A stretch of DNA of 63,632 bases, counting the filler, from Psammoneis japonica (Eukaryota): the NCBI GenBank assembly GCA_008632985.1. It is 7 parts of 6 records of this genome, joined end to end, with 100 filler letters (N's around TTAATTAATTAA, not from the genome) between each part and the next. Parts side by side here need not be neighbours in the genome. Positions count along the whole stretch, not along the records: positions 29,159 to 54,064 come from QPGO01000038.1; 6 more parts are not named here. One strand, written 5' to 3'. The translations under genes were made by a program, and so were the position numbers. Positions 22,090 to 45,108 of this stretch are shown in pieces. Position 1 is the stretch's first letter, and each line of letters starts with the position of its first letter. The notes under the pieces are model-generated. The model was given only the letters and a program-made list of their open reading frames with translations. It made no database searches and was not told the origin of the DNA.

Positions 22090-22908
22090 GAAGCCGCCAA
22101 TTTTCGTCGAACGCCTCCTGAAGATTGCCACACATCAGCTGTGTCGGCACTGAACCAGCAGGGTGAAACCAGCACCACCGGCACAGCTTGCCTTCCATCT
22201 TTTTCACGAATTCCAAGTCATCCCGCTTCCAACCAATCTGACCGATGCTGTCGCACCAGGAACCGTTGGTGATGATGGTGGGTGGATCTGCAAGTTTGCC
22301 GCTCATGAAATCAATGAACGACTGTGCGGTGGCGTGACAACTCTGCCAGGCTCTCACATCTTTAGACAATGCCATCTCCTTTGATTTCTTCTTTGCATCC
22401 TTCCTTGCTGCCATCTCAGTTGTTTCGTTGTTTCCAGGATCCGGGTTGTTTGCATCTGCTTTTGCTTCGGTTGTGTGGATCAAACTCATGTCGCAGCTCG
22501 GATCCTCAAATGCATGGTGCCGCTTGAGTTTGCCGATTCGCAATTGTGTGTGGTGACCAAATCCAGTCCTCCACAGATTTCGGATGCCTTGCAAGGGATC
22601 AATGGGGGGAGGGCGATTGGCTCCTTTGCAGGCGGTTTTGCTGTCGTCTGCGACACCGGCACGTCTCCTTCCACCAACGACGACGGTTGGTTCATCATGG
22701 TTGAAGTCGGCGCTGCCTCCGCGGTCGCAGTTGTGATCGTTGCGTTGCGCGGCGGTGCAAGAGACGCTGGCGTTGCGGCAACGGTGCCTTCGATTTCCTT
22801 TGCAAGAGACGTGTCCTTTTCATGAGACGACGTTGCATCCGGTTCCTCCACAGTGGTGCACAACACAAGACACGGAGGTTGTCGACAACGACCAGCGGTG
22901 CACTCCAT
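22090..22908 (-). pseudogene. TpA-erased ORF of unknown (probably TE or repeat) origin, truncated by the contig end
   Basis: ATG at 22908 and frameshifted Tyr-free ORFs. Only about one TA in 830 bp. A second copy lies at 59181-59788 (+). Confidence 0.4.
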
Positions 22909-24838
22909 GAAAGTGACTGATGCTACGCCGCTCGCTGTAGCGAGAACCGCGAACAAAACGGAAGGCGTCCGTCGATTGGGTGCAATGGCCCTAGGGCCCT
23001 ACGGTAGTATGTACTGTACACATTATGTAGGATGCATGCCAGACACATGTTCTTGCTGACGTCGTACAGTGTGTTTCAACGAATTCTATTGTACAACTCC
23101 TACTCATTATGTAACCGTGGCTGGATGTGAGGAACTGCTGGATAACCATTGTATGCTGCACGTAAAGATTCGAACTATGTGGGGTGCTATTTCAATTGCT
23201 TAGTGAGCGTCACTAAACGATATTTGCGTGGCTGCTACTCAACAGCTGGCAAATAATGTGCGATGTGATGACGACAGGAAAACAGGAAGAGCGACTTGGA
23301 GGTTGCGGTTGCTTTCCGATTTGTGTGGGCGATTGGACATTAAACATATTGAGTTTGTTTTCCGCATGCTGAAATATTTTCTGGACTATTGTTGTTTAAT
23401 CGTTCATCACGGTGTTTTCCTGCATTATGCCGCCGTCGGCGATAAAAATGAATGTAAGATGCAAGTGGCTCTTTCTGTCGCTGGTCCTCGTAGCACTTCA
23501 GCTATCCCAAAAAGGGCAATCTCAAAGCAGCGGGTAGTTGTCATCGGTAAGGAGAGACTGTTGATCTTCCGCTGCTCATTTTAAAGTTGTACGTCTTCAT
23601 CAAAACTCGCATCACCGTCGTCGTTGTGCAGGGAAAGTTATAATTGATGACTACCGAAAGGGCCTAGAAAACCCGTCTGACGGAAGACTACCGATTGGAG
23701 GTGGTGGGCCTCAGGCAGCGTTTGGAGCTGCGCTGGCGGTACTTGATAACGACTCAATAGATGATCCTCTGCAACAGCCAGTTACATTTCTTGGATTTCT
23801 TGGCCCAGTCGGAAAAACTTGATTGGTCTGAACGTGAGAACAATGCGCTGCATGAGCTGTTGGACCCTATGGTTGATTCGTCACAAGTCCTTGAAGGACC
23901 AGTATGTCGTACACCTCGCAACCAATTGTGGCATGATTCAGACCAAAATGTTCAGTGGATGCCCCTGAACGATAGTTTTGGACCAGAAGGCGCTGGGGGG
24001 TTGTGGAGGAATTGTCCATCTGCTGCGGATGTTTTAAAATATGTTTACGAGAAGAGGAAACTCTCTCTACCTTGCATGTGATCATAGAGGTTGGTGCGGA
24101 CTCACCGGACTCCTGCACCAATGCATGTCGTCATGGCTGCAGAGTAGGCGTTCCGAGCCCCCGTAGGATTCACGGGACTACCATCGCAAGTATGAAGCTC
24201 GGCAGCTGGGATGGGGGATTTGGTTTCTGAGCCCCGTTCTCTAATAAAGCTACCTCTCGGACCATCTCTCACTGCTGCATCCCATTTTCTCCAACAGGTT
24301 TTATCGAACGCCCTGTAAAGGTGCATATCCGGTGAAATGGCGTCAAACACGGTACTTATTTCATCTAGGCGAGAAGAACATGATTCTGAATCTCTTTCAG
24401 ACATGTCACCAGTCGCGGCGTCCGGAAAAGCAATCGGTTCTATTCCTATAACCTTCGCCTTCTCTGTCAAAGATCCATCTCTAAGTAGCATGCTGTCCTG
24501 CCAGCACCTCTCTCGTCGATGCTGGTTGTATCGCTTCTGCTATTGGGGCTGCCGTTTGCGAACACGAACACTTGCCTCCCTGGAATGCAGATACGATGAA
24601 GAGAATACGACAAGCAGCTACCGAAGTCAAAGAGAAACGGGGTATCCATAGAAATACGCGCATAATATAAGTATCCATGACAAAGAACGCAACAAGTTGC
24701 TTGGGTACTTCTAATTGTCTCAAAGTACTGTGATTTTTGCTTTACTTTTTTGATCTTCGCACACCTCGTGTACCAATTAACAAGCCTACCGCAAGCAACG
24801 CACTCGCTGACAAAGCGTAACATATCGACTTCGCCCCC
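22302..24838 (-). repeat. ~2.5-kb segment near-identical to 57256-59788 (allelic haplotig or dispersed repeat)
   Basis: Reverse-complement identity along the whole length, with few SNPs and indels. The copies are on different contigs. Confidence 0.95.
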
Positions 24839-24938
24839 NNNNNNNNNNNNNNNNNNNNNNNNNNNNNNNNNNNNNNNNNNNNTTAATTAATTAANNNNNN
24901 NNNNNNNNNNNNNNNNNNNNNNNNNNNNNNNNNNNNNN
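24839..24938. other. Artificial contig-joining spacer
   Basis: N44-TTAATTAATTAA-N44. Confidence 0.95.
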
Positions 24939-25310: not shown

Positions 25311-28300
25311 TATGACTCGGTTCTGTATCAATTTGCAGGATACTCAATTGAAGAAGCTATGCATGCTTTACTGGGAGGTTATGCCCAACCACCGGTACCA
25401 AGAACCAACATCCGATCATTTGTTGGCGGCTGCTACATGAGGTCCCCCGGTTCAGCGTAAGATGCTTCCTGAAATGCTCTTGGTGTGTAACGCACTTATG
25501 AAGGCTTTGAATCACCCGAACGAATACGTAATAGGCAGTCTGCTTCGCTTTCTTTGCAAGGTGAAGGATGAGGAGATTCTCGGTCCACTCATCCCTTCCA
25601 TCAAGGCTAATCTCGAACATCGTCATCAATACGTCCGTAAGAACGCGGCGCTCGCCTTATTTGTTGCTCAGATAAGCCGTTTGGAGAGCACTTGATTCCT
25701 GATGCACCAGAGCTCATGTACGAATTCCTCCAAGCCGAAACAGACGTTGCTGCGAGGAGAAACGCCTTTCTTATGCTTTTCAATCAGTCGGAGGATTCAT
25801 TTGGCCATTCATTTCTTGGCCCAACACATGGATGACGTTGGCAAGTACGGAGATGGGTTCGCCTTGCTCGTTCCGCCTGGAACTTAGGGCCCTACTCGTA
25901 AGATCTGTCGCCGTGACCCCATACTGTACCCAAAAGTCACGATTTGTCCGGGTCTTGTTTCAGATGCTTTCCAACACGTCTGCTGCCGTGTCCTACAAAA
26001 CAGCTTGGACTCTAGTCTCGCTTTCTTCGGCACCCACTGTCATTCGTGCTGCCGACGTTGCTTACACAATTGTTGAATGACAAGAATGACAACAATGTCA
26101 AGCTCATTGTTCTTGAGTGATTGGAAGACCTCAAGATGCGTCATTGCAAGATCTTGCAGCTGCTAATGGACATTCTTCGCGCGCTTCGTTCCCCAAGCGC
26201 TGATATTTGCAAGAAGGTCCTCGATGTTGCCATGGATATTGTCACCCTTCGTAGCGTTTCTGATGTGGTATCGACGCTTGAGCGCGAGGTCGCCAAGACT
26301 GCAGGACTCTTCCATGGCGGAAGCCAAGGGCATGGAACATGCTGATTCGGACCGTTCACGGATGCGCTGTGCGATTCCCCAATGTTGCCGAGTCGGGTTG
26401 TTTTTGCCCGCATGGACTTTTTGGGCGTGGATGGAGGTATGCAGGTTGCTTTTTTTGCCAGAGCCATTGTCGAACAGTACCCCGCACTGTGAGGCCCATC
26501 TTGCCAAAGTTGTTTGGTTTCGTCGTGGACATTTCTTCGCGCAACGTAATGTACGTTTGTCTCCGGATCTTGGGTGAATACCCGGATACGGAGGAAACCA
26601 CTGTTGAGGCCTCTGCAATTTTTTCATATCAGTTAGGTCCGACCCCATTCTTGATTGCCAAGGAAGAGTATGATGAAGAGAAGCACGAAGAAGGAGATGC
26701 TCCCAAAATGATTACTAAGGACGTTGTGTTGGCAGCCGGTGCTTACGCGACCCAAGACCCAAACCGTCTACTCCGAAGCCGCTCTTCCGGACGATTCGGA
26801 TAATACTCCTCATTTGCGCAAGATGGTGATTGGTTGTGACGTCTTCTTGGGAACCATTCTAGAGCTTCATGCCTGACCAAGTTGTGTTTGAGGGCTACCT
26901 GGTACGAATTTGCCTCAAATGGACGCATTGGCGATTAAGAAAATGACGCCCGATACGCTGCTTATCATGTGCGGTGTAGTCAAAATGACCCAGGCCAGCT
27001 TTTCAGTTCAGCGTCCAACCGTGGCTGATTGTTCGTAACGCATTGCACTTCGCTGCCTTACGCTATCGGGCTCCAAGGAATGTCTATTACTCAAGGATAA
27101 TCTCCTGAACCATGGTGAAGCAATGTTCGCCCAGGTTATTAAGACGCTCAAGGACAAAGAAACCAAAGATGCTTCATCCGACGGCGAGGACGACGCAGGT
27201 AAACTCCCCACGGCGCAGCCTGACGACTTGATCCACTTTAGTCAGTTGCGTTCCATGGCTGTTCAGGGTGGTGATGTCGACCTTGACGACGGAGACGATT
27301 TGGGACGTGCTACTGAGTATGTCGGTGCCAACGATTTGCTTAGTTCCGAACTGAATCATGTCTACCAACTCAGTGGGTTTGCGGATAATGTCTACGCGGA
27401 GGCCTATGTCACGGTGACAGTGTCTTGGAGATTCTGGTCATCAATCTTACTCCCAACACACTAGCCAATATTGCGGTGGAGCTCGCCACAAAGGGTGACA
27501 TAAAGATTGTCGAACGCCCGCAGTCTAAAAAGATCGGCCCTTTCGATCAGATCACCGTCCGCGCCTCCATCAAGATCTCCTCCACCGAGACGGGGCACAT
27601 CTTTGGAATCATTGTCTACGACGACACGGCGACTCGGGGGAAGGGATACATCAATCTCAATGACATTAACATGGACATTATGGATTACATTCGCCCCGCA
27701 ACTTGTACCGACGAAGCCTTTCGATCCATGTGGGCCGAGTTTGCATGGGAAAACAACGTGGCCATTTCAGCCTCGATTCCCAACTTGTTGGATTTTCTCA
27801 ATCACATTGTCGAGTCGACCAACATGCGCTGCCTCACTCTGCACGACACATTGGAAACGGGACGCTTCCTTGCCGCTAACCTCTACGCAAGAAGGTAAGA
27901 CATTGCTTGTTCTCGATGCGCGCTTGCCGATTGTTTCCCGGTTTTGTGTTGGATACTGCGTAGCACGCTTTTTCATGAGTAGTGCCTGTTAATGCCGGGA
28001 GAAAGAAACTTCTCGTGAAACTGTCGGCGCCGACAAGGTGCCTTGTTACGCATTCAGCACCTCATTGCAAGCACGAGAGCGTGGCCGTGTGGGATCAGTC
28101 CTTACGCGTACCTTTAGAGCATTGGTGTATCATATCTATTTGCTCATGCAACTCTAGTTTCATAGTCTTTGAACCGTCAACTAACACATGCGTGCTTTTG
28201 TTGTTTGTATAGTGTCCTTGGTGAAGACGCTTTCGTTAGTGTTTCGGTCGAGAAGAAGGACGACAACGACTTTAAGTTGGCTGGGTACATACGGACACAA

Positions 28301-28325
28301 GGTATTGCTCTGACACTGCATGAAC
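25311..28325 (+). pseudogene. COPB1: Coatomer subunit beta (beta-COP) pseudogene
   Basis: Recognisable segments [89 protein letters not shown] and FLAANLYAR/SVLGEDA (intron about 27896-28212). Many stops, frameshifts and deletions. Confidence 0.88.
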
Positions 28326-29058
28326 TAGTCCCACCGGTATGTATGTTGATTCTACTCTCTATGCTTCTCTCCCTCGTTTTGATTTCCCAGGCTACAACCA
28401 AAGGGTCGATCGCTTCCTTGACGCCAATCGGGAACGGGCCGTGGCCAAAACCGCGAGGCTAGGCAGTATGTGGATCAAGCCTCTAGCAATGTATATGTTT
28501 GGCAATAACAAGGTTTAATAGGGAGCCATTTGAACGAGAAGATTGAAAAGCTGCATGAATAACAAAGTTCTATACATTTAGTCTAGACGCCACGAATGAT
28601 CTCCATCGTTCATTGCCATAGAGAGGAGCCGCTGTCCTTCCTGGCGCGTAAACAAAATCATTCCGTGACGCCAAAACTTACCTTATTATTTCATTCTTCC
28701 ACAATTCATTCTCTGCGTCCGAAATAAGTAAGGGTTTGGTTCATTGACTACCGCGGTTCTCGAGCAAATACAGAGTGTTCAGAATGTGCATCGAGATTCG
28801 CTGAGTCGTGATTCAGATTCTGCCCAACGGCGGAAAGCATACTTCTACATACACTGATTCCTCCGCAGATCTACACAACGGAAATATAAAATGACCATTG
28901 TGCCGTACCCTTCTACAGGAATCCAGTACAAAACAGATGACATTCGGCATTCGAACTGCCAGCGCGACACTTTCCCTGACTCAACCATGAATCATATCCT
29001 CTAAGTAAATCCAAGACCTTCTGACGATGACGCACTCAACATCGACTGTCACTTATGG

Positions 29059-29158
29059 NNNNNNNNNNNNNNNNNNNNNNNNNNNNNNNNNNNNNNNNNN
29101 NNTTAATTAATTAANNNNNNNNNNNNNNNNNNNNNNNNNNNNNNNNNNNNNNNNNNNN
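29059..29158. other. Artificial contig-joining spacer
   Basis: N44-TTAATTAATTAA-N44. Confidence 0.95.
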
Positions 29159-29519
29159 GCATGCCACGGGACCAACTGTGGACATGATGCGGAAGATTGC
29201 CGTCAGCTCAAGCACCACGTGAAACGTGTCAAGACTGGACATTCCAACAACGGAGGCGGCAAGCCCAACACAAAACCTCGGAATGAGGAAGATGTTAATG
29301 CTCTCATCGGATCGAAGGTCGAGGAGCACTTTGCCAATGCTCAGAAAAAGCGCAAGGCCCGCGAGGAGGAGCTTGATCACTTCCGCGACCTCAACCCAAG
29401 TGGTTCCGAAGACTCGGACGCCAGAGAAGGGGGCCGACACGATGCAGGCAGTTTTAATGCATTGGATGAATGTGTGAATGAACAACTGAACTACCATCGT
29501 ACACGTGTTGCAGGCCAAT

Positions 29520-30401
29520 CCCGCAAACGAGTTAAAAAGACTCATCTTGCTCCAATCTTGTTTGCAGCTGTGAATGCTGAACATGGCAAGGGCAAGACTC
29601 AAACCATTAAGACACTGCCAGACAGTGGCGCCAGCAGTGCTCCACTCGACAGTCGACACTGCAAACGTCTGCGAAGCCATTCAACGGCTGAGACAAACTG
29701 GCTACGGTGGCAGGCTCGTCTGGCACGTCTGACGACTGCACCGTTAAATTTCGGTTGCCAGAGTTGTCCGAAGCTGCAGAACTTGAGCATGCCGTCCACG
29801 CACACAACAGAAAGCAGGGCAAGTGCGATGTGATTGTTGGACGTGACATTCTGGAGACACAAGGCATTGACGTTGTCTTCTCCAAACAGATGACAGAGTG
29901 GCCATTGGTCAATGGAGAAGTGCCAATGAGGCACGTAGATGCTGCGGTGGAAACCTCCTTCTATCTTCAAGATCCAGAAGCCTTGTCTTCGGAAACCGAC
30001 CGGATTTCGCGCATTTTAGACGCTGAGCACGCGCCGGCCTGCCTCGAGGACATGACGCGAGGGGCAATGGGACTTTCCACAGTTCAACAAAACAACCTTT
30101 TGGCACTGTTGAAATGCCATGAGTCCTTGTTTGATGGGACATCAGGAGAATGGAAGGGAGAGCCCTGCCATGTCCAACTCAAGGAGGGTGTGGAACCATG
30201 CCATGCTCGTCCGCATGAAGTGCCTCGTGCGCACAAAGCTGCGCTGCGTAAAGAAGTAGAACACCTGGCACGTGTCGGTGTTCTCAAATGCGTCAACCGA
30301 TCCCAATGGGCAGCTCCATCATTTGTCATGCCGAAGAAAGATTTAACGGCACGCTTTGTTGATGATTTCAGAGAGCTGAACAAACGGATCAAGCGATTGC
30401 C
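29520..30401 (+). pseudogene. Gypsy pol 5' part: protease and RT N-terminus
   Basis: LPDSGAS, CDVIVGRDIL and SQWAAPSFVMPKKDLTARFVDDFRELNKRIKRLP. It ends at the Copia TSD. Confidence 0.85.
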
Positions 30402-30582
30402 GAATGAATGCCGATGCAGCCGCGTGGGGCAATGACAGCACCTTGAGCCCAAGAGCAGCAGCGACAAACCAAAGAGAACCCTGTGTCGATTAGAACGTGT
30501 GAGATTGTGGGAAAGAACAAACCACCAGATCGTGCGCGTCAGCCCCGGACCAGGGACTGACCGCTCCACCCAGATTTACTCG
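30402..30582 (-). repeat. Copia 3' LTR
   Basis: Direct repeat of 36358-36538. On the minus strand it is preceded by the G-rich PPT-like CGCGGGGAC. Ends are uncertain by about 1 bp. Confidence 0.9.
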
Positions 30583-30699
30583 GTCCCCGCGAAACGGCAG
30601 TGACAATGCCGATTCGTCTAAACCTGGAACATCCTCTCACAGAGAGGCAAACACAAAACCCAAATTCAGGCCACCAGCAATGCTGGCTTGGGAGGCCGA

Positions 30700-32674
30700 A
30701 ACAAGTGGGCGCGAGCCGCAGGTGTCTGGCCTTGGTGTCGGGGCTCTGCCAAAAGATGCAAGAGCAAAGTTTCCAATGCCGCTCTCCCGTCGTCACCTTC
30801 ACAAACAAATCCCGCCAAATTTGTGTCCGTGTCCTCCTTCCAACGCGAATGACGCCAGCCGCAACCGCTTCACGAACCAAATGACAGTTGACAGCATCAT
30901 GCTTCTTGTGCAACACAGATTCCGGAACACTGACGTTCTTCACCACGCCGCGGTTGTCGCAAAATGCATTGGCAGGGCCTTCAATCGGCACTCCAAACAT
31001 GCAAAGTTTGTGACGCAAAGCAACAATCAACTCCTTGCAAATGCGCATTGCAACCAATTCGCTGCCAAACGTCGCTGACTCCACTGTGTTCTGCCGCTTG
31101 CTAAACCAAATGATCGGAGCATTGTTCACGAATGTCAAAATCCCGCTGTGCGATCTGCGAGCAACAACGTTTCCCGCATGGTTGGCGTCAACAAATGCAG
31201 ACACATTTGCCGGGTTGCCACGGGGCTTGGGCATCCATGGCGGCAACTCCTCCTCAACGTCCCCATAAAACTCCGTCCAGTCCGCAGTGGAATTGAAAAC
31301 AGATTCGTCAATCACAGGCATCTTCGGGTCAAAACCAATGCGACCGACATTCAAATGCTTCTTCATGTGCGCGAACACATGGTGCAACGCTTCGAGGTGC
31401 CCTTTCCTTGGGTTGGCTTGACACTGAGAGAGAATAGAAACTTCATGCAAGATGTCGACACGGCCCAACTCGATCGCCCAACGACAAATGCCAATCAACT
31501 GCAAACACCTGTCCACCAAATCGGGTCCCAACTCGTCCGTCACGTCTAATTCCGGCTTGTGCTTAGAAGGCAGTGGGTCCCTCACATTGTTCTTCAAGAC
31601 TGCTCCGTCACCGTCCTCTTCTAACAGCCCTTCCACCGTCTTGATCGCCGACTTGACACACGACTTCGGCGAGCTTGCCCAAATGGTGCACCCATCTTTG
31701 GTCTGAACCTTCTCGACGTCGGCTCCAAGGCACAACGATGTCTCTCCTTCACTCCCAGGTTTGACAGCAAATGATTCACCCATGCTCTCGACAATGGATT
31801 TTCCTTGATGAGAAATGATTAGAATGTCGTCAACATGAACCAAAAGCATTTCATAATGCTCGTGCCCATCGTCACGAGTCGCCGCACGAACACAAACGTT
31901 GGGATCCGCCTTCGTTGATTCAAAACCCATGTTCCGTAAAACGGATGCCAATGCGGACCTCCAAGAGTGTCCAGAGCTCTTCAAACCGCACAGCGCTCGA
32001 GTCACAACTAGAACCTTGCCTTGGTGCTCTCCACATTCCCTGCCACCTTCGAACCAGATCTTCTCCGCACACGGGGCATTCAAGTGCGCGTTCTCCAGGT
32101 CGACAGCCGCAATGTCCACTCCATTCAATGCTGCCAGCAGGAATCCTAACCGCACGCCATCCCTCGAAACAACACTTGAGCATGTGATCGATGATGGTGT
32201 TTCCGCAGCATGACCTCCTGCAACAAATCTGGCCTTCCCAGTGAAATCCATCTTTGCGTCGAATGCCAAATGGCACCTGATCTCCTGACAACCACGCAAA
32301 GTTGCACTCTTGCCTTCCCGGACGACTTGAGGGGTTTCAGCTTCATGTTCGCGCCACGCTGCCTTGACCTTGTTCATCTCCTTGTCAATTGCGCGAGCCC
32401 AACAGTCCGTCCCCGTTTCCTGGTCAATCTTCAAAGCATCTTCCGTAGACTTGGGTAAACGTGTGCCGAACTTGTGGGCAGTGCGCCAATGTTTCTTCTT
32501 AGCCTTCGAGATGATGCGATTCCGCTTGCCTGAAACATGCGTGGCCCACCAAGCAAACGCCGGTTCTTCGGTTGACCTGTTCGCTGCAGCATGCTCAGCA
32601 AGCTCAATCGGGCTAGACTCCTTCAGATCCTTGAGTTTCACCCACGACAAGCTGCCGTCCTTCCATGCGACCAA
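30700..32674 (-). pseudogene. Copia reverse transcriptase and RNase H
   Basis: KARFVAGGH, DLENAHLNA, RALCGLK, LLVHVDDILII, FVDANHAG, SKRQNTVESATFGSE and FCDNRGV. Only 2 Tyr in the 711-aa ORF. Confidence 0.92.
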
Positions 32675-33156
32675 TGGGTTCCATCCTTTCGTAGTGTCTT
32701 CTTATGTTCGTTCCCGTCAGCTGTCTGAACTGTTCCTTCCTGGATCGGTGTAGCTTCGCCGGTCTTTTCGTGATCCTGTGTCTCCTGCAAAATAGAGTGC
32801 TGGTTGCCTTGCTGTCAACTTGAGCAAACACATTCTCCGCGATCACATTGGCAGCACGCTTGTCTCTGGCACCGTCTGTGCATTCAATCTCACATTCGCG
32901 GGTGTCAAACAATGGATTCTGATGCCGGGTTCCAATCAGTTGCCCATCCTGACCTCGTGCCCGCTTGACTGCGACTCCTCGCCGTTCAGCGTTAGTCCCA
33001 ACATCAAACACGAGTTCCATTCCAAGACATTGATCAATTGCCTGTTCGTCGTCGTCCTCGGGTCGTTCTCCTGGCAATGACATGTCCCCGCATTCCTCAT
33101 CGGTTGGTGTCACACCGCCTTCACATTCCATGCCGGGGTTGCCGTCGATCGCCAAA

Positions 33157-34020
33157 TCATCCAATGCAAATGCTGGTGCCCTTCGTCGCCTTGTAAAACG
33201 AAACTGGTGTCATCCAACCGTGCCCGAGTTGTTCGTCAAACTTGTCGACTTTCACACGAGTGTCCGGCTGCACCATGTCGGCCTGCGTTACATGCTCGAC
33301 CAAAGTCTTCGAAACCATCTTCCCGGATTCCGTGACAATCCAATGACACATGTCCGATCCGACCTTGTGAGACACACCAAGCCATCGTCCAAGCCTCCTC
33401 GGGTCATCTGTTACATTCGGCTTGTCGTGTCCATCCCACCACCAGACCAGATCACAGAAACCGAAGTCCAAACACTCGCCTGTTTTGGGTGTCTGACCAG
33501 TTGCCTCTTCACACCCAGTCCGTTTGTCGCGGCCTCTTGCCATGCGAGACACAAGTTCCGATTCACAAACTAGACCAAAATCCCACAATCGTTTCGGCAC
33601 CTTCTTCCTCGTCATCCGCAGGCGCCAACACTTAGCCAAGAACCCGATCTCTCTTTCTGCTGCGTGATTCTGATTCTTACGACCTTGTTCCGTTGTCCTG
33701 AGTTGGATCCTCATTCGACGTGTGTGTTTCACAAACTCAGTGCTTCGTCCTGTGAACTCTCCAGCACCATCCGACATGAGACACTCCGGCACTCCCACAT
33801 CGTCTGTAAAGTCAACGAGAGACAAACCTGCCTCCGACCTTGCGGTCATTGGCACAACCTTTACGAACTTGCCCTGAGCACAAACATTGGCACAAGTGTG
33901 CCGAGCAAAGACTTCACCTTGGACATTAACGTGTCCACAAACCATGTCCCTTTTGATCTTTTCCGATGCAGGTCCAAGTGATCCACCCTGACTCTCCTTG
34001 ACATTGGTTGGGTCACCGTC
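33157..34020 (-). pseudogene. Copia integrase
   Basis: WFVDT, DVGVPECLMSDGAGEFTG, QNHAAEREIG, VPKRLWDFGL and LGRWLGVSHKVGSDMC. Confidence 0.85.
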
Positions 34021-34444
34021 CNNNNNNNNNNNNNNNNNNNNNNNNNNNNNNNNNNNNNNNNNNNNNNNNNNNNNNNNNNNNNNNNNNNNNNNNNNNNNNN
34101 NNNNNNNNNNNNNNNNNNNNNNNNNNNNNNNNNNNNNNNNNNNNNNNNNNNNNNNNNNNNNNNNNNNNNNNNNNNNNNNNNNNNNNNNNNNNNNNNNNNN
34201 NNNNNNNNNNNNNNNNNNNNNNNNNNNNNNNNNNNGACTGGAGACAATCGAGTGAGTTCAGCTTCAACCTCGCCCCATTGGACTGCTTGAGACTTGGCCC
34301 TGTCGCTCTTCATTTCTGAAATCTGTTCCTGTCTCATGCCAGATGTCATCGAACGGACAGCGCGCATCTCAGATTGCTCCCTTGCACGCTGTGGTGAACC
34401 CACATCGACTTCCGTTGGACTCCACACGTCTCCTGTTGGCAGCA

Positions 34445-36120
34445 TCACTGGTGAGTTCTTCTCCTCCCAATCCGTGGAACACGAGACTTGAAAAATGCAA
34501 TTGTCCCCATGGAATTGAAAGGCATGAAAGCTTCATCAGCTTCGATTCCAAACCCATTTCGAGTGTCGCAAGGGTTGTCGTGTGCGGGCACATTGTGCGC
34601 TCGCAACTGATTGGGGTTCAACAATGAATGCTGCACGTCAGTTCCAAACCACAGCATTTGGTCTCCAACCAGCAAGCACTCGCGAGTCGTTTCCGGATCC
34701 GTCCATGCTGTGCAACAACGCGCCACAGGAATCTGTTTAACTGGCTCATGCGAATCTAGAAACGGGTGCACTTCACAGACTTCGTTCGTCAATTCCATGA
34801 GTTTCCAGTTAGCGCCAGCACAACAAGTGTCCGCATGAGTGTCACATTCGTTCCTTGCCATGAAGCCGGGTGTCGTTAAGTTCGTCATCGCGGTGGTGGT
34901 CGTTGACCTTGTCACACGTTTCGAAGTCACAGCAACGCGCCTTTTCGTTGCCTTCTCTTGCAAATGAAACATTGGGTGGGGTTTGGTTAACAACATGATG
35001 AGCAACATGAATGCAAATGATGTGTGTGCCAAATGCGCCAACGCTCCCGTAGTTGAAACCACCCCGATCAGTCAAACATGACCTTGACAGGCCCCTCGAC
35101 CGAAAGCGCGCCCATTCCTGCCACCACGATCACGGTCAGCTCCGCGACCGCGGCCACCGTTTTCACCTTGCGCTTGATCTTGCTGCCCTTGACCTTGACG
35201 GTCTTGAACCTGAGCTTCGGCTGCTTGCCTGTTGCCTCCGTCGCGTCCGCCTCTTCCTGCAGGGTTTCCTCGACCACCGCGTCCGTGCATCCTTTCACGA
35301 GCTTGAAAAACACAATTGAGACCTCCGTTAAAGCGCAATCTGTCCCATTCCTGGTCGGCAAATGTCCTCGTAGGATCCGACACATCGACTCCATCAATCA
35401 CAGTTGTGCGATCACCGCCCCTTCCTTGATGTCCTCCGCGTCCTCCACCACGGCCAAATCCACCGCCACGCCCACGACCGCCGCGATGGAAACCTCGGCC
35501 ACCACCGCCACCTCGGCTGATCTGAGAAATCTTGCGCTTCGCATGATGCCAGGCTTCCAACTGAGCACCTGCATGCAAACGAGAGACTTCGGATGAGAAA
35601 CAAGCACACGCCCCCGCGAAGTCACGAGGGCACTGGTTGCCAATGACGGCCGTAGCTGCCACAAGACGGGCATCCTCTGATTTGATGCCCTTCTGCAATG
35701 TTTCAACCTTCTGCCGAGCAGATGTGCTTTCATCTGGAACCTTGTCCAAAGTGGCAAAGGCACTGGTGAGTTTCTCCTTGAATTTCTCAAACGCAAGTGC
35801 ACCTTCCTTTTTGTAGAACTGGTCAACAACACCACAAACCTGCAATGCCGCGTCCACGTCAGCCGCCGCGGCCAAAGCCGCAAGTGCCACTGCTGGTGCC
35901 GCTGCCATCCTGTGACAAGAGAAACAGAGGCAACAACCCGCACAATGGGTCGCAATTTGGTGTGAGTGCGCATGGCACAGGAGGCCACACCGACCGGTGC
36001 TGTGACAACGGGTTCACGCAGCCAACTGACTTTGGGGTGATCAATCCCGTGTCGTTTCCATCGTGAGCACACGCTCGGGCATGCTGCCCAATGCCGCAGT
36101 CGCTCCACACCCGTTAACAA
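34445..36120 (-). pseudogene. Copia gag (RGG-rich C-terminus) and aspartic protease
   Basis: FEKFKEKLTSAFATL...KVETLQKGI, RGG repeats, DGVDVSDPTRTF, and protease ECDTHADTCCAGANW...SLLNPNQLR. Confidence 0.8.
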
Positions 36121-36342
36121 CATGGAGATGGTGACCATTTTGCGAGCATTTTCCGTTGCAAGCTGTTTCCTTTGGTCGTCATACGCGACACAGAGCACAC
36201 GCTGCACGCGACAACCCCCTTTCGACGCTGCGCGTGCGAATCAGTGCATTTTCTACAGCTGCTCGTTCCATGCACACAATCACAACAATCAACCGTTTGC
36301 AACGAGTTGTTTCCTTGTCCGTTTCGTTCAGCTTTTCATCAA

Positions 36343-36356
36343 TGGCTCTGATGAAG
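36343..36356 (-). other. Probable primer-binding site (initiator tRNA-Met type)
   Basis: The minus strand reads CTTCATCAGAGCCA next to the 5' LTR. The canonical iMet PBS is TGGTATCAGAGCCA; here TAT appears as CAT and the first three bases mismatch. Confidence 0.5.
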
Positions 36357-36357
36357 C

Positions 36358-36538
36358 AAACAAATGCCGATGCAGCCGCGTGGGGCAATGACAGCACCTT
36401 GAGCCTGAGAGCAGCAGTGACAAACCAAAGAGAACCCTGTGTCGATTAGATCGTGCAAGATTGTGGGAAAGAACAAACCACCAGATCGTGCGCGTCAGCC
36501 CCGGACCAGGGACTGACCGCTCCACCCAGATTCACTCG
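36358..36538 (-). repeat. Copia 5' LTR
   Basis: Direct repeat of 30402-30582. Confidence 0.9.
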
Positions 36539-36543
36539 TTGCC

Positions 36544-38824
36544 TCATCCGATTCCTCATGTCCAAGATGTGCCACTTGGGCTCAAAGGCTTTGTGTGGGC
36601 TGCATTGCTGGATTTAAACATGGGCTGTCATCACATCCGATTGGATGCTGACAGCAAGAAGCTCTGTGCGCTCATCTTCCCGTGGGGCAAGCATGAGATG
36701 CAGGCATTGCTCATGGGATTGTGCAACTCGCCAGACATTTTCCAAGAACGCATGTCAGGCTTGTTTGAAGATCTGTCGTTTGTTCGAACGCACTTAGATG
36801 ACCTTCTCGTTGTGACGAAAGGCACCCATGAAGATCACCTCAACAAACTTGAAGAAGTTTTGTTGAGGGTCCAGAAAGCAGGACTAAAAGTTAACGCAAC
36901 TAAATCTCACTTCTGTCAAACCCAATTAGAATGCTTGGGTTGTCTGGCTGACAGAGACGGAGTGCGACCAACACCTGATAAAGTCGACGCCATCAAGCGA
37001 ATCGCGACCCCAACCAACAAACGCGACCTGCGTTCATTTGTTGGCATGGTGAACTGCTGTCGCGACACGTGGATTAGACGTTCTGAAGTCTTGGCTCCGC
37101 CAACACGACTCGCAAGCGAGACTGTTAAGTGGGAGTGGACGTCCGTTGAAAACGAGGCATTCGAAACCGTCAAACGGGCAATGTCGGATGATGTTTTGTT
37201 GTCACATCCTGATTTTAACAAACCCTTTGAGATGCATGCCGATGCCTCTAAATGTCAATTGGGAGCAGTCATGTCCCAAGATGACAAACCTGTCGCCTTT
37301 TGCAGCAGAAAGCTCAACAGTGCGCAATTAAATTGTGCAACAACGGAGAGAGAATTGCTCGCCATTGTGAAGACGTTGAAAGAATTTCGAACGATTCTCC
37401 TTGGTCATCGTGTGATCACACACACTGATCATAAAAATCTTGCGCACAAAGTGTTCAATGCCGAGCGCGTCATGCGCTGGCGGTTGACATGCGAAGAATG
37501 CGGTCCCGAATTGCGCCATGTTAAGGGTGCCCACAACCCAGTCGCTGACGCTCTTAGTCGCCTTCGACTGGCACCCAGCTTGCCTTCCGAGGCCAATCCG
37601 GATGTAAAAGACACTCCATCGAGTCGTCCTTTGCATGAAGCCTTTAATGCAGACGCTCAAGATGAGCCATCTCTGCCTGTTAGCTTCAAGCGCATTCAAA
37701 AAGCACAACAAAAGGACAAGCGCCTGCTCTCACGAGCCAAGGACTCGTCCGACTGCTCCATTCGCGCGCATCGTGGGGAAGGGTCATCACGACAGTCAAT
37801 CTGTCATAAGGACAAAATCGCAGTGCCGCAGTCATTGCAGGTTCCGCTAACTGAATGGTGCCACGAGACACTGTGTCATCCAGGTGAGACACGTGCGGAA
37901 ATGTCCATTGCCCAGCACTTCTGTTGGCCTGGCATGAGGTCTGCGGTGCATTCTACGTGCGTTGAGTGCGATCGATGCCAGAAGACAAAACGCCGAACGC
38001 AGCATTGTGGGAAGCTGCCAGAAAAGGTCGCAGAGATAATTCCATGGGAGACTCCATGCACAGATGTGATGGGGCCACATAAAATTCAAAGACACGGAAA
38101 GGACACCTTGCAATTGTGGGCAGTCACAATGATTGACCCAGCAACCGGGTGGTTCGAGATTGAAGAAGTGTCTGCGAAATGCGCAGACATCGCAGCAAAC
38201 GTCGTGGAACAAACGTGGCCATGCAGACATCCGTGGCCAACCCAGGTGGTTTATGACCGTGGGACAGAATTTATGGCAGAATTCAGCCAGATGATTAAAA
38301 ATGACTGTGGGATTTTGAAGAAACCCACAAGTGAACGGAATCCACAGGCGAATGCCACAGTGGAACGTGTGCGCCAGACACTTGGCAACATGGTGCGTTC
38401 CTTTTCAGCACAGGACATGGAACTGGACGAAGATGACCCATGGAGTGGCATCCTCTCCGCAGTGGCCTTCGCCATTGGAGCTGCGGCACACACGACCACG
38501 CGTGCAAGTCCCATGCAATTGGTCTTTGGACGCGATGCGGTTTCATCTGTTGCCCATCGTGCCAAGTGGAAGCACATAGAAACCAGAAAGCAGAAGCTCA
38601 TCCACTTAAACAACAAGCGTGAAAATCAGAAACGCAAGGAGTGTCAACATGCCGCAGGGCAATTGGTGCTTGTCAAGCAGGAACAATCCTCTAAATGCGG
38701 TTCTAACAGCCATGCAGGACCCGCCAGTGTTGTCCGTGTGTGTGACAATGGCACGTTGTGCACCCAGAACGGAGCACTGACAGATGCGCACAATCTGCGG
38801 CAGATTGCACCCTGTCACCAGTGA
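36544..38824 (+). pseudogene. Gypsy pol 3' part: RT, RNase H and integrase
   Basis: LDLNMGCHHI, HLDDLLV, DASKCQLGAVMSQ, ERELLAIV, HTDHKNL, H-x4-H zinc-finger, YDRGTEF and NPQANATVER. One Tyr in 787 aa. Confidence 0.93.
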
Positions 38825-39289
38825 GACATTCTGTCACTTGACGGCCCTGATCATGGGGGAGTGTGCAGCATGCCTCGCTGCTGGACAACACGGTGAGACC
38901 GTGCATGAGCCTCTTGCACGTGGCAACGTGGTGTTGTTAACACGCACCTGGGAAGCACGACCACAGGAGGGCGTGGCTCTAGATCTCAGGCAATTCCAGA
39001 AGGATGCCAAGAGAGCATCCGTGTGAAGCACACCAGCCCGTCGTCTGGCCCACGATGGCAGCGTGATTCCACATGATGACATCACTCGTGCATGGCGCGT
39101 GATGGCGTGATTCGCACGATCCATGATGCGAACGCACGATCGATTTGATGCGATCCAAACGCGAACGAATGGGGATTTGGCAAGATTCCCCATTCGCACG
39201 ATCCCATTTTCTCTGCTCTAAACTAGCTCACAATTTTCACAACGACAAAGTCGCAACACATCTTCTTTTTCAGCGCCTGGTGCATGCAT

Positions 39290-39640
39290 GGGGCACGAGT
39301 GCATGGCTCTCTGCACTCAGTGAAATCCTGCTCAACGGCATGGAAAGAACACTTTGGCAGCTCAAGCTCATGCCCAGCTGCGCCCAGCAAATCATGCCAG
39401 AGTTGATTGTTGGGCCATGTCTTCAATTTAGACAACAAAGTGGCGGAAGACAAAGAATTGCTCACAGCTGGAGGTGTGCATTGATGGAGGTGCCAGACAA
39501 GCAACAAGGCAGCAAGGTTCAATTGGCTGGTGTCATGCTCCCCGACAGTGTTCCCCTCATGCCCCAAGTCCACGGACAGGGGAGGGACAGCAGGAGGTGC
39601 ACCTCTGGCCTGTCCAAATTGATGTTGACTCCATGTCCAA
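39290..39640 (-). mobile_element. Short non-LTR (LINE-like) RT fragment; second copy at about 52120-52465
   Basis: QLWHDLLGAAGHELELPKCSFH resembles the W..LL...GG.L...KC motif of LINE RTs. Confidence 0.45.
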
Positions 39641-39849
39641 AGTGCTCTGCTGCTGCATCCTCTGGAGCATCTGCTGCCATCCAATGTTTGAATGTCTTCG
39701 GATTGTCTTGAGGACCAGCTGGCACTTGAATGGTCTTGATGCTTGAGTCTGCTTTCTCCTTGAAAGCATCAATCTTTCGGAACACTCTCTTTGTCTCTTC
39801 TGCTTCTGCGCACTGCAGCTTGCAGCAGAGACCGCTGTTGGACGAAAAC

Positions 39850-40300
39850 ATGCCAAGATCTGGCAGCCGGCTTGCGTGGCTGTTCTTCAGTCTTCCAGCC
39901 TTCCATGCTTGCTTTTGCGTGTCCAGCCAATGTCCAAGTCTTTCTCCATTTTCAGGCTGTTTGAGAAGAGAAAACACAGTTTCCCAATGCTCAGCCAGAA
40001 TGTCCCACTTGGCTCTGGCCTTCTCCAGCAATTCCTGTTGAGAAGCATCAAGTTTCCTTTTCCTTGTGGCATCCCGTTGGTTGCTTGACCATTTTCCAAG
40101 GTTCTCCCAACCCTTGTTGTGGCACCTTGGCATGTTGCAATGTCCCTCCCGTTTCGTGAATTGCTTGAGAAGAGAGGGCATTGTGCCCCATTGATTTTCC
40201 CACAAGAGCCACTTGGCACCAGCCTCCTCAAGTTTTTCTTCTTTTTCAATGTTGAGCATGCTGAGCTTGTGTTTTGTGGCCACTGGTTGTCCAACCAAAT
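39850..40300 (-). pseudogene. Degenerate helicase-associated (HA) domain repeats
   Basis: W..M..LL.QF..REGHCNMP....LGKW..NQR.....LD..QQELLE and LGHWLDTQKQ. Confidence 0.65.
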
Positions 40301-40479
40301 TCCAAGAGCAAAGCCATCCTCAGCACATTCATTGGGAAGATCAGGCTGCAAGCAAAACATGGCGCCAATCTCAGCAACACAGCATTGTGGAAATGTGCTC
40401 TTTGTGCCAGAGGCATGTGTTTGTGAACAACATGGTTCACTGGCAGTGCTGCCAACAGATGCTCTCTATTTTCTTTTTT

Positions 40480-41717
40480 GCATGTTTGTTTTCCTTGAAA
40501 TGACATGCTTGTTTTCCTTGAAAAAACGTGCTTGTTTTCCTTGAAAGAACATGTTTGTTTTCCTTGAAACAACACGTTTGTTTTTGTCAAAACAATGTGT
40601 TTGTTTTTGTTGAAATGAAGTGTTTGTTTTCCTTAAAAAGACATGTTTGTTTTCCCTGAAACGACATGTTTGTTTTCCTTGAAACGACATGTTTGTTTTC
40701 CTTGAAAAGACATGTCTGTTTTCTGCAAAATGACATGTTTGTTTTCTTGAAAAGACATGTTTGTTTTTCTCAAAAAAACATGTTTGGTTTCCTTGAAACA
40801 ACATGTTTGTCTTCGTTGAAACAACATGTTTGTTTTCCTTGAAATGATGTGTTGGTTTTCCCTGAAACGACATGTTTGTTTTTGTTGAAACGACTTGTTT
40901 GTTTTCCTTGAAATGACGTGTTTGTTTTCCTTGAAACGACATGTTTGTTTTCCTTGAAAGAACTTGCATGTTTTCTTTCCTTGAAACAACATGTTTGTTC
41001 TCTTTGAAAAGACATGTTTGTTTTCTTTGAAAAGACATGTTTGTTTTCCTTGAAAAGACATGTTTGTTTTTCTTGAAAAGACATGTTTGTTTTTCTTGAA
41101 AATGAGTGAATGCTGTTTGTTTTCCTCAAAAGGACATGTTTGTTTTCCTTGAAAAGACACCTTTGTTTTCCTTGAAAAGACATGTTTGTTTTCAAGACAT
41201 GTTTTTTTCCTTGAAAACACGTGCATGTTTTCTTGGAAACAACACGTTTGTTTTCCTTGAAACAACATGTTTGTTTTCCTTGAAACAACATGTTTGTTTT
41301 CCTTGAAACGACATGTTTGTTTTCCTTGAAACGACATGTTTGTTTTCCTTGAAACAACACATTTGTTTTCCTTGAAACGACATGATTGTTTTCTTTGAAA
41401 CGACATGTTTGTTTTCCTTGAAATGCACGCTTGTTTTCCTTGAAATGACATGTTTGTTTTCCTTGAAATGACATGTTTTTTTTTTTAAACGACATGTTTG
41501 TTTTCCTTTAAACGACATGTTTGTTTTCCTTGAAAAGACACGTTTGTTTTTCTTGAAACAACATGTTTGTTTTCCTTGAAATGAAGTGTTTGTTTTCCTT
41601 GAAAAGACATGTTTGTTTTCCTTGAAACGGCGTGTTTGTTTTCCTTGAAACAACACGTTTGTTTTCCTTGAAAAGACATGTCTGTTTTCCTTAAAATGAC
41701 ACGTTTGTTTTCCTTGC
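40480..41717. repeat. 23-bp minisatellite array (consensus ACATGTTTGTTTTCCTTGAAACG), about 50 units
   Basis: Visible tandem units. The spurious ORFs have a 23-aa period, equal to 3 units. Confidence 0.95.
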
Positions 41718-42189
41718 AACAACTGGCATGGAAACTCTGGCGGCAAGCACCAACCTGAAAAGGACAAGCCCAGGATCTGGGCATGCCATTGCCCCATTGA
41801 AGAGTGGAGGGCTCCTGACGGTCCTGAGCAAAAGCAAGTTGAGAAGCTCCATGAGGCCAAGAAAGCTGGGAAAAAATGCAAAGCAGCAGCTGCATCCTTG
41901 GAGGCTGAGTCGGTCGATGCTGACACTCACGCTGTGAAAAGGACGGCTGTTGCCAAGCCTTAACCTGCTGATGAACAAAAGGACTCCAAAGAGTCAGATG
42001 AGCCACCTGCTGTCTGCACAGGCATGCAGTTTGGATGCAGCGCCCACAAGAAACCTCAGAAGGAGGAACGAACAGTTGTGCCAGCACCAAAAGGCATGGA
42101 GCCAACTGTTGCTGCACCTGCTGGCACTGTGCATTTATCCAGGTGATTCCCAAAGAACACGTGTGTCTCTTTGTCATCTGCTGGACATT

Positions 42190-42700
42190 CACATGGTGAA
42201 GCAACCAATGGCTTGGACTCGCACGCTGATGCGTGCGCTGTTGGGTCCAAATTTGTCATGTGCTCTGATGTTGACTGCGCTGTTGCAGTGCATCCTTGCT
42301 CCGAAGAGTGTGCGCCAATGAGGAGTGCTCTCATTTGTGCGGCTGCTGCCATGTGGGTTGATCCAACCAATGGATGGCCACACCTGCTGCCAGTCCATGA
42401 GGCTGTGTTTTTTGGGGACAGAATGACTGACACCCTGCTGTGCCCCAAACAACTGCGAGCGAGTGAGCTGACTGTCCACAACACCCCTCGCCAGTTTCGT
42501 CCCAACAGCACACACTCTGTTGTTTTCCCTGACTCGAAAATCAGGATGCCTTTGTGCACGCAAGGTGTTGCTGTGGTCTTTGACTCACATGAGCCAACTC
42601 AGGAGGATCTGGAGAACCTCCCCCGGCTGGAGCTCACATCACCCCTTGGATGGGAACCTTCTGCTGATGCCGCAGCACAAAAGGAGGAAGAGCGCGCATG
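42190..42700 (+). mobile_element. Copia protease-region fragment; partial copy at about 45240-45455
   Basis: GLDSHADACAVG...HEAVFFGDRMTDTLLCPKQLR...TPRQF. Confidence 0.75.
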
Positions 42701-42964
42701 TGCCAGTGTGCGCAAAGGACCAGCAAAGTCTGATGGACAGTTGACAATGGATGGGTTCCAGCCCCAGGTGGGACTTTTTGTGACATTTGCCCCGTGGAAT
42801 TCTGCGTGCGAGCTCTCTGCAGTTCGCACTCTGGTCAATGGACACATTTGTCTTCAACACAAAACAAATGGCCAAGTTTGCAGTGCATGTGTCTCTGTTC
42901 GCACTCGAAGTTTTGGACAACACGGCTGCCCTGCGCCATTCTTAAGACACTCGAGAATGGCGCA

Positions 42965-43850
42965 GAAGAAAAAAACATCAAAAGTTGCTGAATGGATCGC
43001 CTGACATTTGCACCATAAAATGATGCAAAATTTCACCAAAATCACGTAGAAATCTGCGTGCACGACATGCGACGTGATTCAAAAAACTGTCAATGTCACA
43101 ATTCAGCAGTGCGAGGTCCCACCCAGACCTGGAATGCGTCAATGATGAGTGCGACCAGGTGTGTCACTTCAACTCATTTGTGCCAGACGTCCCACAAAAA
43201 TGAGAGCATCATTGTGGATGCAAATGATGGCGATTCTCTGCATGCTGCTTGGTTGCTCAGGTGAGTGTCTCTCACAACCACATTGGGGGAGACGGGCCAC
43301 ATGACTGGCACAGTCTGTGCGTCCACCTGGATTGTGCTGAGTGGAGATGGGTGCATGCACTGTCGACCTTGAGTTGTGCATCGACTGTCACACCCAAGAT
43401 GCTCTCCAAGAGGTGGGACATTGGCCTGATGGCCGCCAAGAACACCCTCCGAGTGACAACCCAGGCAGGGGCCAGCAACGTCAAGATCATGGGTTGCGTG
43501 AGCTCTGGGTGCACGCTCAAGGACTAAAGTGTCTGCGAGCTGGAGGAGCAATTGGGCGCCCAGATCAGAAAGTGCCAGTTGTCTGACTTGGAAAGCAAGG
43601 CACGCTGGGCCATGTCCTCTGACCTTTGTGTCAAGTGGGAATTGACTGATGTTGAGCTGGAGCTGAAGAAAACTGAAAGGCGTCTTCCGACAAAGGCGTC
43701 AACCCCCTTGAGACCGCGGCACAGGCCTGAGCTGGACAGCTTGCCTGAGTTGAGTGCCAAAATGGCCAACTGTCATCAAGGCTTTGTTGGTGTGCTCCGA
43801 GTTGTTTGTTTTTCTTGAAAAGACATGTTTGTTTTTGTCAAAAAGACGCG
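42965..43850 (+). mobile_element. Composite repeat containing fused Copia pre-integrase and RT fragments; second copy at about 52470-53370
   Basis: VTPKMLSKRWDIGLMAAKNTLRVTTQ is joined directly to WAMSSDLCVK...HRPELDSLPEL...HQGFVGVLR. Confidence 0.7.
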
Positions 43851-44433
43851 CTTGTTTTTCTTGAAACGACATGTTTGTTTTCCTTGAAACGACATGTTTG
43901 TTTTCCTTGAAAAGACATGTTTGTTTTCCTTGAAACAACACGTTTGTTTCACATGTTTGTTTTTGTTGAAACGACATGTTTGTTTTCCTTGAAACGACAT
44001 GTTGTTTTTCTTGAAACGACGTGTTTGTTTTCCTTGAAAAGACATGTTTGTTTTTTTTTGAAACGACATGTTTGTTTTCCTTGAAAGGACATGTTTGTTT
44101 TCCTTGAAATGACATGTTTGTTTTCCTTGAAAGAACTTGCATGTTTTCTTTCCTTGAAACAACATGTTTGTTTTTGTCAAGACAACATGTTTGTTTTCCT
44201 TGAAATGACACGCTTGTTTTCCTTGAAAAGACATGTTTGTTTTTCTTGAAAAGACATGTTTGTTTTCACTGAAATGACATGTTTGTTTTCCTTGAAAAGA
44301 CACATCTGTTTTTCTTGAAATGACATGTTTGTTTTTCTCAAAAACAAGATGTTTGTTCAACATGTTTGTTTTCTTTGAAAAAACATGTTTGTTTTCCATG
44401 AAAAGACATGTTTGTTTTCCTTGAAAAGACATG
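43802..44433. repeat. 23-bp minisatellite array
   Basis: Same unit as 40480-41717. Confidence 0.93.
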
Positions 44434-44434
44434 T

Positions 44435-44763
44435 GGGCAGGCGGTGGGAGCCACCACCCACAAGAGCCGTGCCTGTGCACAGATTGCTGCCGCGAAGTGC
44501 ACCAGATGGGGTCATTTTGCTTTTGACCAGTGCGTGCAATGCCATCAGAAGGCTTGCGATGACTTGTCTGAGCTCGACGAGCCAGCGGCCGAGACCAAGA
44601 AGGTCTCTGACTTTCTCAAGGGTGTTTTCGACCCTGGGTTGGAGACTGGTGAGAGTGCAGTGGATGGAAATCTGATGAAGCCAGCAGACTTCAAAGCATG
44701 CCAGCAGTGTGCAAAGATTCTGGTGGAGAATGCCAAGAACCACAACGCTGATGCTTGCATGGC
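44435..44763 (+). mobile_element. Copia gag fragment
   Basis: FAFDQCVQCHQKACDDLSELDEPAAETKKVSDFLKGVFDP. Confidence 0.6.
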
Positions 44764-44994
44764 TCAGTGAGCCGAGCATGCACATTTCTCATTTGACCAT
44801 CGCAGGTCCATCTTGTGGGGGGTGTCAAAATGTCGTGCTTCAATGTGCGAATTTTCAATTTCACACAACCTCAACAACTGCACACACAATGTGACGATTG
44901 ATCCTCGAGACGCATCAAAGCACAACGTTTTGGCACCCCCCACAAGACAGACCTGTGATGGTCAAATGAGAAATGTGCATGTTCGGCTCACTGA
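44764..44994. mobile_element. MITE-like foldback element, 231 bp with ~84-bp terminal inverted repeats
   Basis: 44764-44847 (TCAGTGAGCCGAGCATGCACATTTCTCATTTGACCATC...) is the reverse complement of 44911-44994, with a few transitions. Confidence 0.85.
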
Positions 44995-45108
44995 AGGGAC
45001 CCCAAAGACACCACCATTTGCACTCAATGATCGATTTTGACCAAATGCACACTTTTTGCCACACCCGACTTTTGCCAATTTTGCCTGGTCAATCCGTGGA
45101 TGCGGTGT

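Follow-up and report, generated by a model that had tools for sequence, protein, structure and literature searches.

A dead Ty1/copia-type long terminal repeat (LTR) retrotransposon lies on the minus strand of Psammoneis japonica DNA at 30402-36538 of the window (the whole stretch of 63,632 nt analysed here), and its two sister LTRs differ reciprocally, with TG in one facing CA in the other. In this element TA dinucleotides were lost while CG was kept, the change ran from TA to TG or CA with both outcomes in similar numbers, and it took place after insertion. As the two copies are identical at insertion, the LTR pair serves as a built-in before-and-after experiment, and it shows erasure of TA on integrated DNA, at either base pair of TpA, far above the ordinary substitution rate.

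The LTRs were compared by ungapped alignment of 30402-30582 with 36358-36538. Ten of the 181 bases differed, nine of the ten as transitions. The differences listed in the initial annotation matched this alignment exactly, with the single refinement that the terminal G/A difference, read together with its flanking base, is a CpG-type CG/CA pair. The differing sites were as follows.

30405-30406 versus 36361-36362: TG versus CA, reciprocal site 1 (context A-TA-A if the ancestor was TA).
30450-30451 versus 36406-36407: CA versus TG, reciprocal site 2.
30500-30501 versus 36456-36457: TG versus CA, reciprocal site 3.
30577: single difference T/C, TA versus CA.
30462: single difference C/T, CG versus TG.
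30495: transversion A/T.
30402: terminal difference G/A, of CpG type (CG/CA with the flanking base, 30401-30402 versus 36357-36358).

At least three adjacent pairs among 10 random differing sites in 181 would arise with P = 0.009, before demanding that all of them be TG versus CA. Sorted by class, the aligned columns comprised three TG/CA, one TA/CA, one TA/TA and 11 CG/CG, together with two CpG-type single differences; of the 13 CpGs that persist as CG in one or both LTRs, 11 were intact in both.

Reverse transcription builds the two LTRs from the same stretches of template, so any earlier change ends up in both. The changes are placed after integration because the LTRs differ from each other, which bears out the initial annotation in its argument from LTR divergence against ADAR editing or reverse-transcriptase error before integration. 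RNA editing is known to leave clusters of A-to-G changes in the retroelements of animals, but an origin of the changes before integration, by RNA editing or by errors of reverse transcriptase (RT), is scarcely credible here: the mechanism of LTR synthesis would have made such changes shared and not reciprocal, A>G and T>C both occurred on one strand, and an RT bearing HVDD as its catalytic motif and lacking 14 of 16 conserved Tyr would scarcely have been able to produce this copy.

The element sits inside the RT part of pol of a plus-strand Ty3/gypsy-like element. The parts of the two elements, in the order of the window, are given below with the evidence for each in brackets.

29692-30401, plus strand: host Ty3/gypsy-like pol, upstream of the insertion (open frame; TA observed/expected ratio 0.20).
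30397-30401: TTGCC, left 5-bp target-site duplication (other host copies without the insertion at exactly 30401).
30402-30582, minus strand: 181-bp LTR, the 3' LTR in element orientation (ungapped alignment; observed/expected ratio of TA 0.26 and of CG 0.84).
30539-32701, minus strand: RT/RNase H open frame, copia-type, inactivated (Pfam RVT_2, PF07727, E = 1.6e-13).
33157-34257, minus strand: integrase-like open frame, split by the assembly gap 34022-34235 (BLASTP order relative to the RT part).
34445-35071, minus strand: protease-like open frame (single BLASTP match, N-terminal part of P0024, E = 1.7e-27).
35072-36013, minus strand: gag-like open frame, Gly/Arg-rich (named from position alone).
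36358-36538, minus strand: 181-bp LTR, the 5' LTR in element orientation (ungapped alignment).
36539-36543: TTGCC, right target-site duplication (same 5 bp as the left flank).
36539-38824, plus strand: host Ty3/gypsy-like pol, downstream of the insertion, with RT, RNase H and integrase (Pfam; TA observed/expected ratio 0.22).

The RVT_2 match of the RT/RNase H frame scored 51.2 bits against a cut-off of 31.6. The closest protein relative of this frame had 68% identity, and its named homologues, at 53-55% identity, were from the diatoms Fragilaria and Thalassiosira. The integrase-like frame gave no Pfam match at E <= 0.001; in all 54 homologues that carry both frames, BLASTP put it upstream of the RT part, and this position together with the RVT_2 match therefore gives the gene order of Ty1/copia. 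No Pfam match was obtained for the protease-like or the gag-like frame. Just inside 36357 lies a candidate primer-binding stretch, which we take to resemble an initiator-tRNA primer site. In the downstream host pol, RVT_1, RT_RNaseH_2 and Integrase_H2C2 exceeded their curated cut-offs and stood in Ty3/gypsy order, while rve (E = 3.9e-05, 24.3 bits) stayed under its cut-off of 32.6.

The host reading frame rejoins across one copy of TTGCC, and seven loose contig ends of other host-element copies ran from 30401 straight into the sequence after 36543 with 26 of 30 letters identical; these ends skip the element and therefore confirm the insertion boundaries. No third copy of the LTR was found within the window. 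The boundaries also bear on the possibility that the LTRs are not true sisters, in which case the scaffold would mix halves of two copies of the nested insertion, or gene conversion from another mutated copy would have overwritten one LTR, and the differences would be divergence between copies. Such a mixture could be fostered by the 214-N gap (34022-34235) between the LTRs, where two sequence contigs were joined by scaffolding, by the construction of the window as a chain of contigs with artificial linkers, and by the high copy number of the family (2073 contigs of the public run X1 at 80% likeness over 29160-34020, 4861 bases with the host element included). It is nevertheless improbable, as both flanks carry one and the same 5-bp duplication at a single point of the host frame, and as, at three sites with TA in other copies, both LTRs alike have CA, CA and TG; the mutation process deduced would be the same either way.

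Loss of TA and of CpG was measured inside the element. The observed/expected ratios over the element were 0.14 for TA, 0.94 for CG, 1.48 for TG and 1.36 for CA, in line with the initial annotation, which had described CpG as abundant. The RT/RNase H frame was aligned with its 60 best homologues, and the 320 columns that were at least 80% conserved were scored. The 16 conserved Tyr columns of this frame now hold nine His, five Cys and two Tyr, and the Tyr of the RT catalytic motif is among those lost, the motif now reading HVDD. With the two conserved Tyr columns of the integrase (one now His, one Cys), the 18 columns comprise ten His, six Cys and two Tyr, that is, 16 were lost. All 71 conserved Gly, Trp, Phe, His, Gln, Cys and Met columns of the RT/RNase H frame were unchanged (Gly 27/27, Trp 13/13, Phe 12/12 and His 9/9 among them). 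Changes were found in 49 of the 320 columns, and 24 of these were single TA>TG/CA steps (13 to CA and 11 to TG); the remaining 25 were three CpG-type, ten other single-step and 12 multi-step changes, with eight of the 12 multi-step columns within residues 623-637, near the end of homology. Among all single-step changes at conserved columns, TA>TG/CA accounted for 24 of 37. The coding changes thus point to TA, as had been claimed. Conserved CGN arginines in the RT/RNase H and integrase frames were kept in 17 cases and lost in the CpG manner in two (2/19). On these measurements, each copy has lost a fraction of about 0.88 of its TAs and about 0.11-0.13 of its CpGs. No sense-strand bias was seen in the Tyr outcomes (ten His versus six Cys, P = 0.45), nor was strand clustering of like outcomes detected (10 runs against 12.9 expected, z = -1.2). 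Transposon proteins stripped of Tyr in this way will be missed or misread by homology-based annotation.

The loss rates for TA and CG measured in the same element, independently of the LTRs, were then applied to the LTR pair. Under a TA model with eight ancestral TA sites and p = 0.875, the expected numbers are 3.1 sites with opposite outcomes, 3.1 with the same outcome, 1.8 single and 0.1 intact, and those observed were 3, 3, 1 and 1, respectively; the best fit was at p = 0.80, with P(data) = 0.058. The alternative is that the three reciprocal sites were CpG and that deamination of methylated C turned CG into TG in one LTR, on the plus strand, and into CA in its sister, on the minus strand. 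CpG decay is clearly active in this pair, which has one CG/TG and one CG/CA single difference, and CpG-type differences from other copies also occur inside the element; in the older repeats of the window, CG observed/expected falls to 0.05-0.6 and some TG/CA doubles fit CpG decay. The numbers speak against it at the three sites. About 14 ancestral LTR CpGs predict only 0.08-0.12 TG/CA sites, and 11 CpGs intact in both LTRs with only two hit once predict about 0.05-0.12, versus the three observed. At a CG loss of 0.13, the probability of at least three opposite doubles among 16 visible sites is 3.2e-4, and with its rate fitted to the data, the CpG model still reaches only P(data) = 6e-4. Depletion of CG in step with the gain of TG and CA was not found in the element, and the conserved CGN arginines were mostly kept. 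Deamination of methylated CpG is therefore an unlikely source of the three sites. Over the parameter range tried, the posterior for a given TG/CA site having been TA was 0.84-0.97.

On these rates, the three TG/CA sites were likely TA before mutation, and the reading of the initial annotation, in which an ancestral TA was mutated independently in each LTR after integration, is probably correct. The ancestral TA gains support from the measured rates and the model; the further statement that opposite strands were hit is indistinguishable from hits at either base pair of the palindromic TpA. The annotation had also set CpG aside, and the dominance of TA was upheld, yet two of the ten LTR differences are of CpG type, so CpG decay acts too. 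Per dinucleotide it is about 16 times slower than TA loss.

Other copies of the family were read from public contigs. Run X1 contains 0.38 of the words of the stretch, and its contigs described above hold 713 variable places, of which 40 were listed, with preference for places where all other copies agree. At 30436 (C>T), 30439 (C>T) and 30445 (G>A) the other copies have TA where both LTRs here have CA, CA and TG; these are double hits in the same direction, and the TA model predicts as many of them as of opposite ones. Counted letter by letter, the 40 listed rows comprised 20 TA-type and nine CG-type differences, six transversions and five other transitions. Among these rows, TG/CA doubles against other copies stood at 30850-30851 and 32749-32750 (two TA-type and two CG-type letters), and removal of the doubles left 18 TA-type and seven CpG-type single differences. 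A contig of a second run (X2), from another host-element copy, had 16 listed differences, 11 with TA there and CA or TG here and one of CpG type. Among 25 listed differences of X2 there was no A>G, at 30451 or elsewhere; the X2 contig over 30401-30478 is therefore not CG at 30450-30451, which indirectly opposes a CpG ancestor at reciprocal site 2. A search with the LTR pattern in which every TG, CA, CG and TA was written as YR gave 0 matches in the metagenome, viral and prokaryote genome contig collections. As a separate observation from the loose contig ends at 30401, other host gypsy-like copies have CA where the window has TG at 36559-36560 and 36568-36569, within 30 bases; this is the same reciprocal pattern, between copies and not between LTRs.

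The DNA around the element was depleted of TA as well. The window contains six identical 100-base linkers, each of 44 N, a 12-letter spacer with stops in six frames and 44 N, at 21990-22089, 24839-24938, 29059-29158, 54065-54164, 59789-59888 and 62056-62155; adjacency across them is artificial, and the spacers add 18 artificial TA steps in TTAA context. The depleted region is given below.

29159-57000: TA-depleted repeat DNA, in two contigs joined by the artificial linker 54065-54164.

The contig carrying the element (29159-54064) was TA-poor throughout. TA observed/expected was 0.17 in 29159-38824, 0.04 in 39000-57000 and 0.53 in the rest of the window, and CG observed/expected was 0.55 in 39000-57000 and 0.97 in the rest of the window. 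One border falls inside a contig, where TA regains its normal level at about 57.0-57.3 kb; most borders coincide with artificial linkers. In the older repeats, most copy-to-copy differences were of CpG type. The order of decay is TA first and fast, CG later and slowly. Surviving TAs in 29159-57000 were biased to TTAA and to CTAA/TTAG, and ATAT, ATAC/GTAT and GTAC were almost gone; TTAA accounted for 21 of 90 survivors in the nested pair of elements, for 15 of 49 in old DNA and for 45 of 1190 in the background (P ~1e-15). The process seems to avoid TA preceded by T or followed by A.

Several further properties of this region were recorded. Its most decayed part, 55500-56700, has one TA in 1200 bases and a CG observed/expected ratio of 0.05-0.16, so that both dinucleotides are almost erased. 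Arrays of a 23-bp tandem repeat, with up to 54 copies, lie in TA-free DNA at 40481-41720, 43803-44434, 45566-45766 and 53307-54064, and 51010-51725 holds a second repeat family, whose periods are 17-204 bp. The 12 kb of 28000-40000 contain 44 stop-free frames of at least 100 codons, spread over the two strands and many reading frames, because TAA and TAG were lost with the TA steps; gene callers could be misled by them. Outside the depleted DNA, 57256-59788 and 22302-24838 (inverted) are near-identical over 2.5 kb, with five mismatches, three of them TA versus CA, and few gaps. Use of this pair as a young-repeat control was dropped, as it is likelier to be a redundant or allelic overlap (one side is nearly the whole of a short contig).

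The same pair is relevant to the suggestion that each TG/CA site was made by a single event in one of the LTRs, a tandem substitution of two bases or an inversion of two bases (the reverse complement of CA being TG). Three events would then replace six. We know of no process that makes tandem two-base changes or inversions at such a rate, no such doubles occurred among the five differences of the 2.5-kb pair, and the loss of TA, the change of Tyr to Cys or His and the single TA/CA difference would go unexplained; such an origin is very improbable.

Some observations weigh against independent mutation of an ancestral TA in each LTR. All three reciprocal sites would have had the context N-TA-A, yet TAs with a 5' T or a 3' A survive more often. 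If flank protection acts on one strand only, opposite outcomes at such sites should be rarer than observed; the tetranucleotide gains of mutated over background DNA, which relate to protection on one strand, were noisy. The seven CpG-type single differences in the listed rows, at some of which every other contig has CG, add to the two CpG-type differences of the LTRs. The 40 listed rows out of 713 include none of 30405-30406, 30450-30451 and 30500-30501 and are uninformative either way at these sites, and the LTRs are separated by an assembly gap. In older repeat pairs TG/CA doubles are explicable by CpG decay alone, as in 48630-49070 versus 47426-47866 (seven CG/CG, 18 CpG-type singles and three doubles); the older doubles fit this decay, and the excess of doubles is therefore specific to the young LTR pair.

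Independent TA mutation in each LTR also bears on dating. The Kimura two-parameter (K2P) distance between the LTRs was 0.058 over all sites, 0.017 once the TA-type differences are removed and 0.0055 once those of CpG type are removed too, so that the warning of the initial annotation that LTR dating overestimates the age was substantiated, the inflation being 3.5- to 10-fold. Rough numbers of hits per copy were 1.9 per TA, 0.12 per CpG and 0.004 per ordinary site, the last from a single difference; TA hits amount to about 0.95 per base pair, about 260 times an ordinary rate that is likewise taken from that single difference. LTR-divergence ages in the Psammoneis japonica genome are accordingly inflated.

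In the mechanism proposed, the copia-type retrotransposon would have inserted into the gypsy-like element and then undergone mutation at the DNA level. Conversion of TpA to TpG or CpA would be an A:T to G:C change at either base pair of the self-complementary TpA, a change of the first base pair reading as CA and one of the second as TG, and a changed step, being no longer TA, would be immune to further hits. About half of the outcomes should then be TG and half CA, and the two LTRs would represent independent trials of one starting sequence. With some 80-90% of TAs lost per copy, about one-third of ancestral TAs would appear as TG versus CA, another third would be alike in both LTRs and few would still be TA; as both LTRs would have lost most TAs from an identical start, many TG-versus-CA columns would therefore be expected. 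Adenine and thymine as the target, on either strand, would give the same sequence outcome. The agent may be enzymatic, for instance by adenine deamination in DNA, by analogy with the proposal for Bigelowiella natans, and the process may be aimed at repeat or foreign DNA. A scheme taken from dinoflagellates, in which thymine is changed to hydroxymethyluracil at TpA, was considered and dropped: a search for the spliced-leader motif that allowed up to 3 mismatches found no match, and the named homologues are diatom.

Among known systems, decay by CpG methylation and deamination also gives TG and CA, and TG/CA differences between copies, and it operates in older repeats of the window; it differs in depleting CG, whereas the element keeps CG (0.94) and loses TA. 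Repeat-induced point mutation (RIP) of ascomycete fungi changes C to T, mainly CpA to TpA, and enriches TA. It is alike in making dinucleotide-specific transitions at the DNA level, in inactivating transposons after insertion and in inflating LTR divergence, but it runs in the opposite direction, as TA is erased here; in the element, C>T at CpA with enrichment of TpA was not found, TA being depleted and Tyr codons lost, not gained. APOBEC and ADAR act on cDNA or RNA before integration, on one strand. Their footprints in animal retroelements are likewise clustered transitions in copies, but they cannot make sister LTRs differ reciprocally.

The closest counterpart is the chlorarachniophyte Bigelowiella natans. 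Two viral regions integrated in its genome mutate about 1000 times faster than the remaining genome in mutation-accumulation lines. Nearly all of the changes are A>G or T>C, and they lie without exception at TpA; the proposed agent is an ADAT2-like DNA adenine deaminase (Mettrop et al., bioRxiv 2026, 10.64898/2026.01.13.699255). The words diatom and LTR do not occur in the main text of that preprint (10.64898/2026.01.13.699255). A full-text literature search returned no account of TpA-to-TpG/CpA mutation of transposons in diatoms, the preprint being the only account of such a process that it found. As far as the text of the preprint describes that system, both cases have in common A>G or T>C at TpA, giving TpG or CpA by strand, depletion of TpA with enrichment of CpA and TpG, and a rate orders of magnitude above background; restriction to foreign DNA may be a further parallel. 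In the element studied here, A>G/T>C transitions and TpA to TpG/CpA were found, with TA as the probable ancestor at the three LTR sites. By the same text, the targets in B. natans are integrated giant-virus and virophage DNA, and here they are LTR retrotransposons and repeats in a diatom-like genome; the changes there were seen arising in culture lines, and here they are deduced from sequence. Compared with what the preprint describes, TA is depleted much more deeply here (observed/expected 0.04-0.17), with TTAA spared.

An enzymatic genome defence of diatoms, in which adenine in TpA of transposons is converted with TTAA spared at about a hundred times the ordinary rate, and which would be the same as that of B. 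natans or convergent with it, is a serious but tentative possibility, for which the chances fall a little short of even. If it is true, DNA adenine editing would be a widespread immunity of stramenopile-alveolate-rhizarian (SAR) eukaryotes against transposons and viruses, and sister LTRs would offer a natural gauge of its rate. Should the process prove enzymatic, this would be the second lineage after Bigelowiella natans with A:T>G:C editing of foreign DNA at the DNA level. The TA erasure seen here is clearly a new instance, in a diatom-like genome and in retrotransposons, of a mutation process described so far in one preprint.

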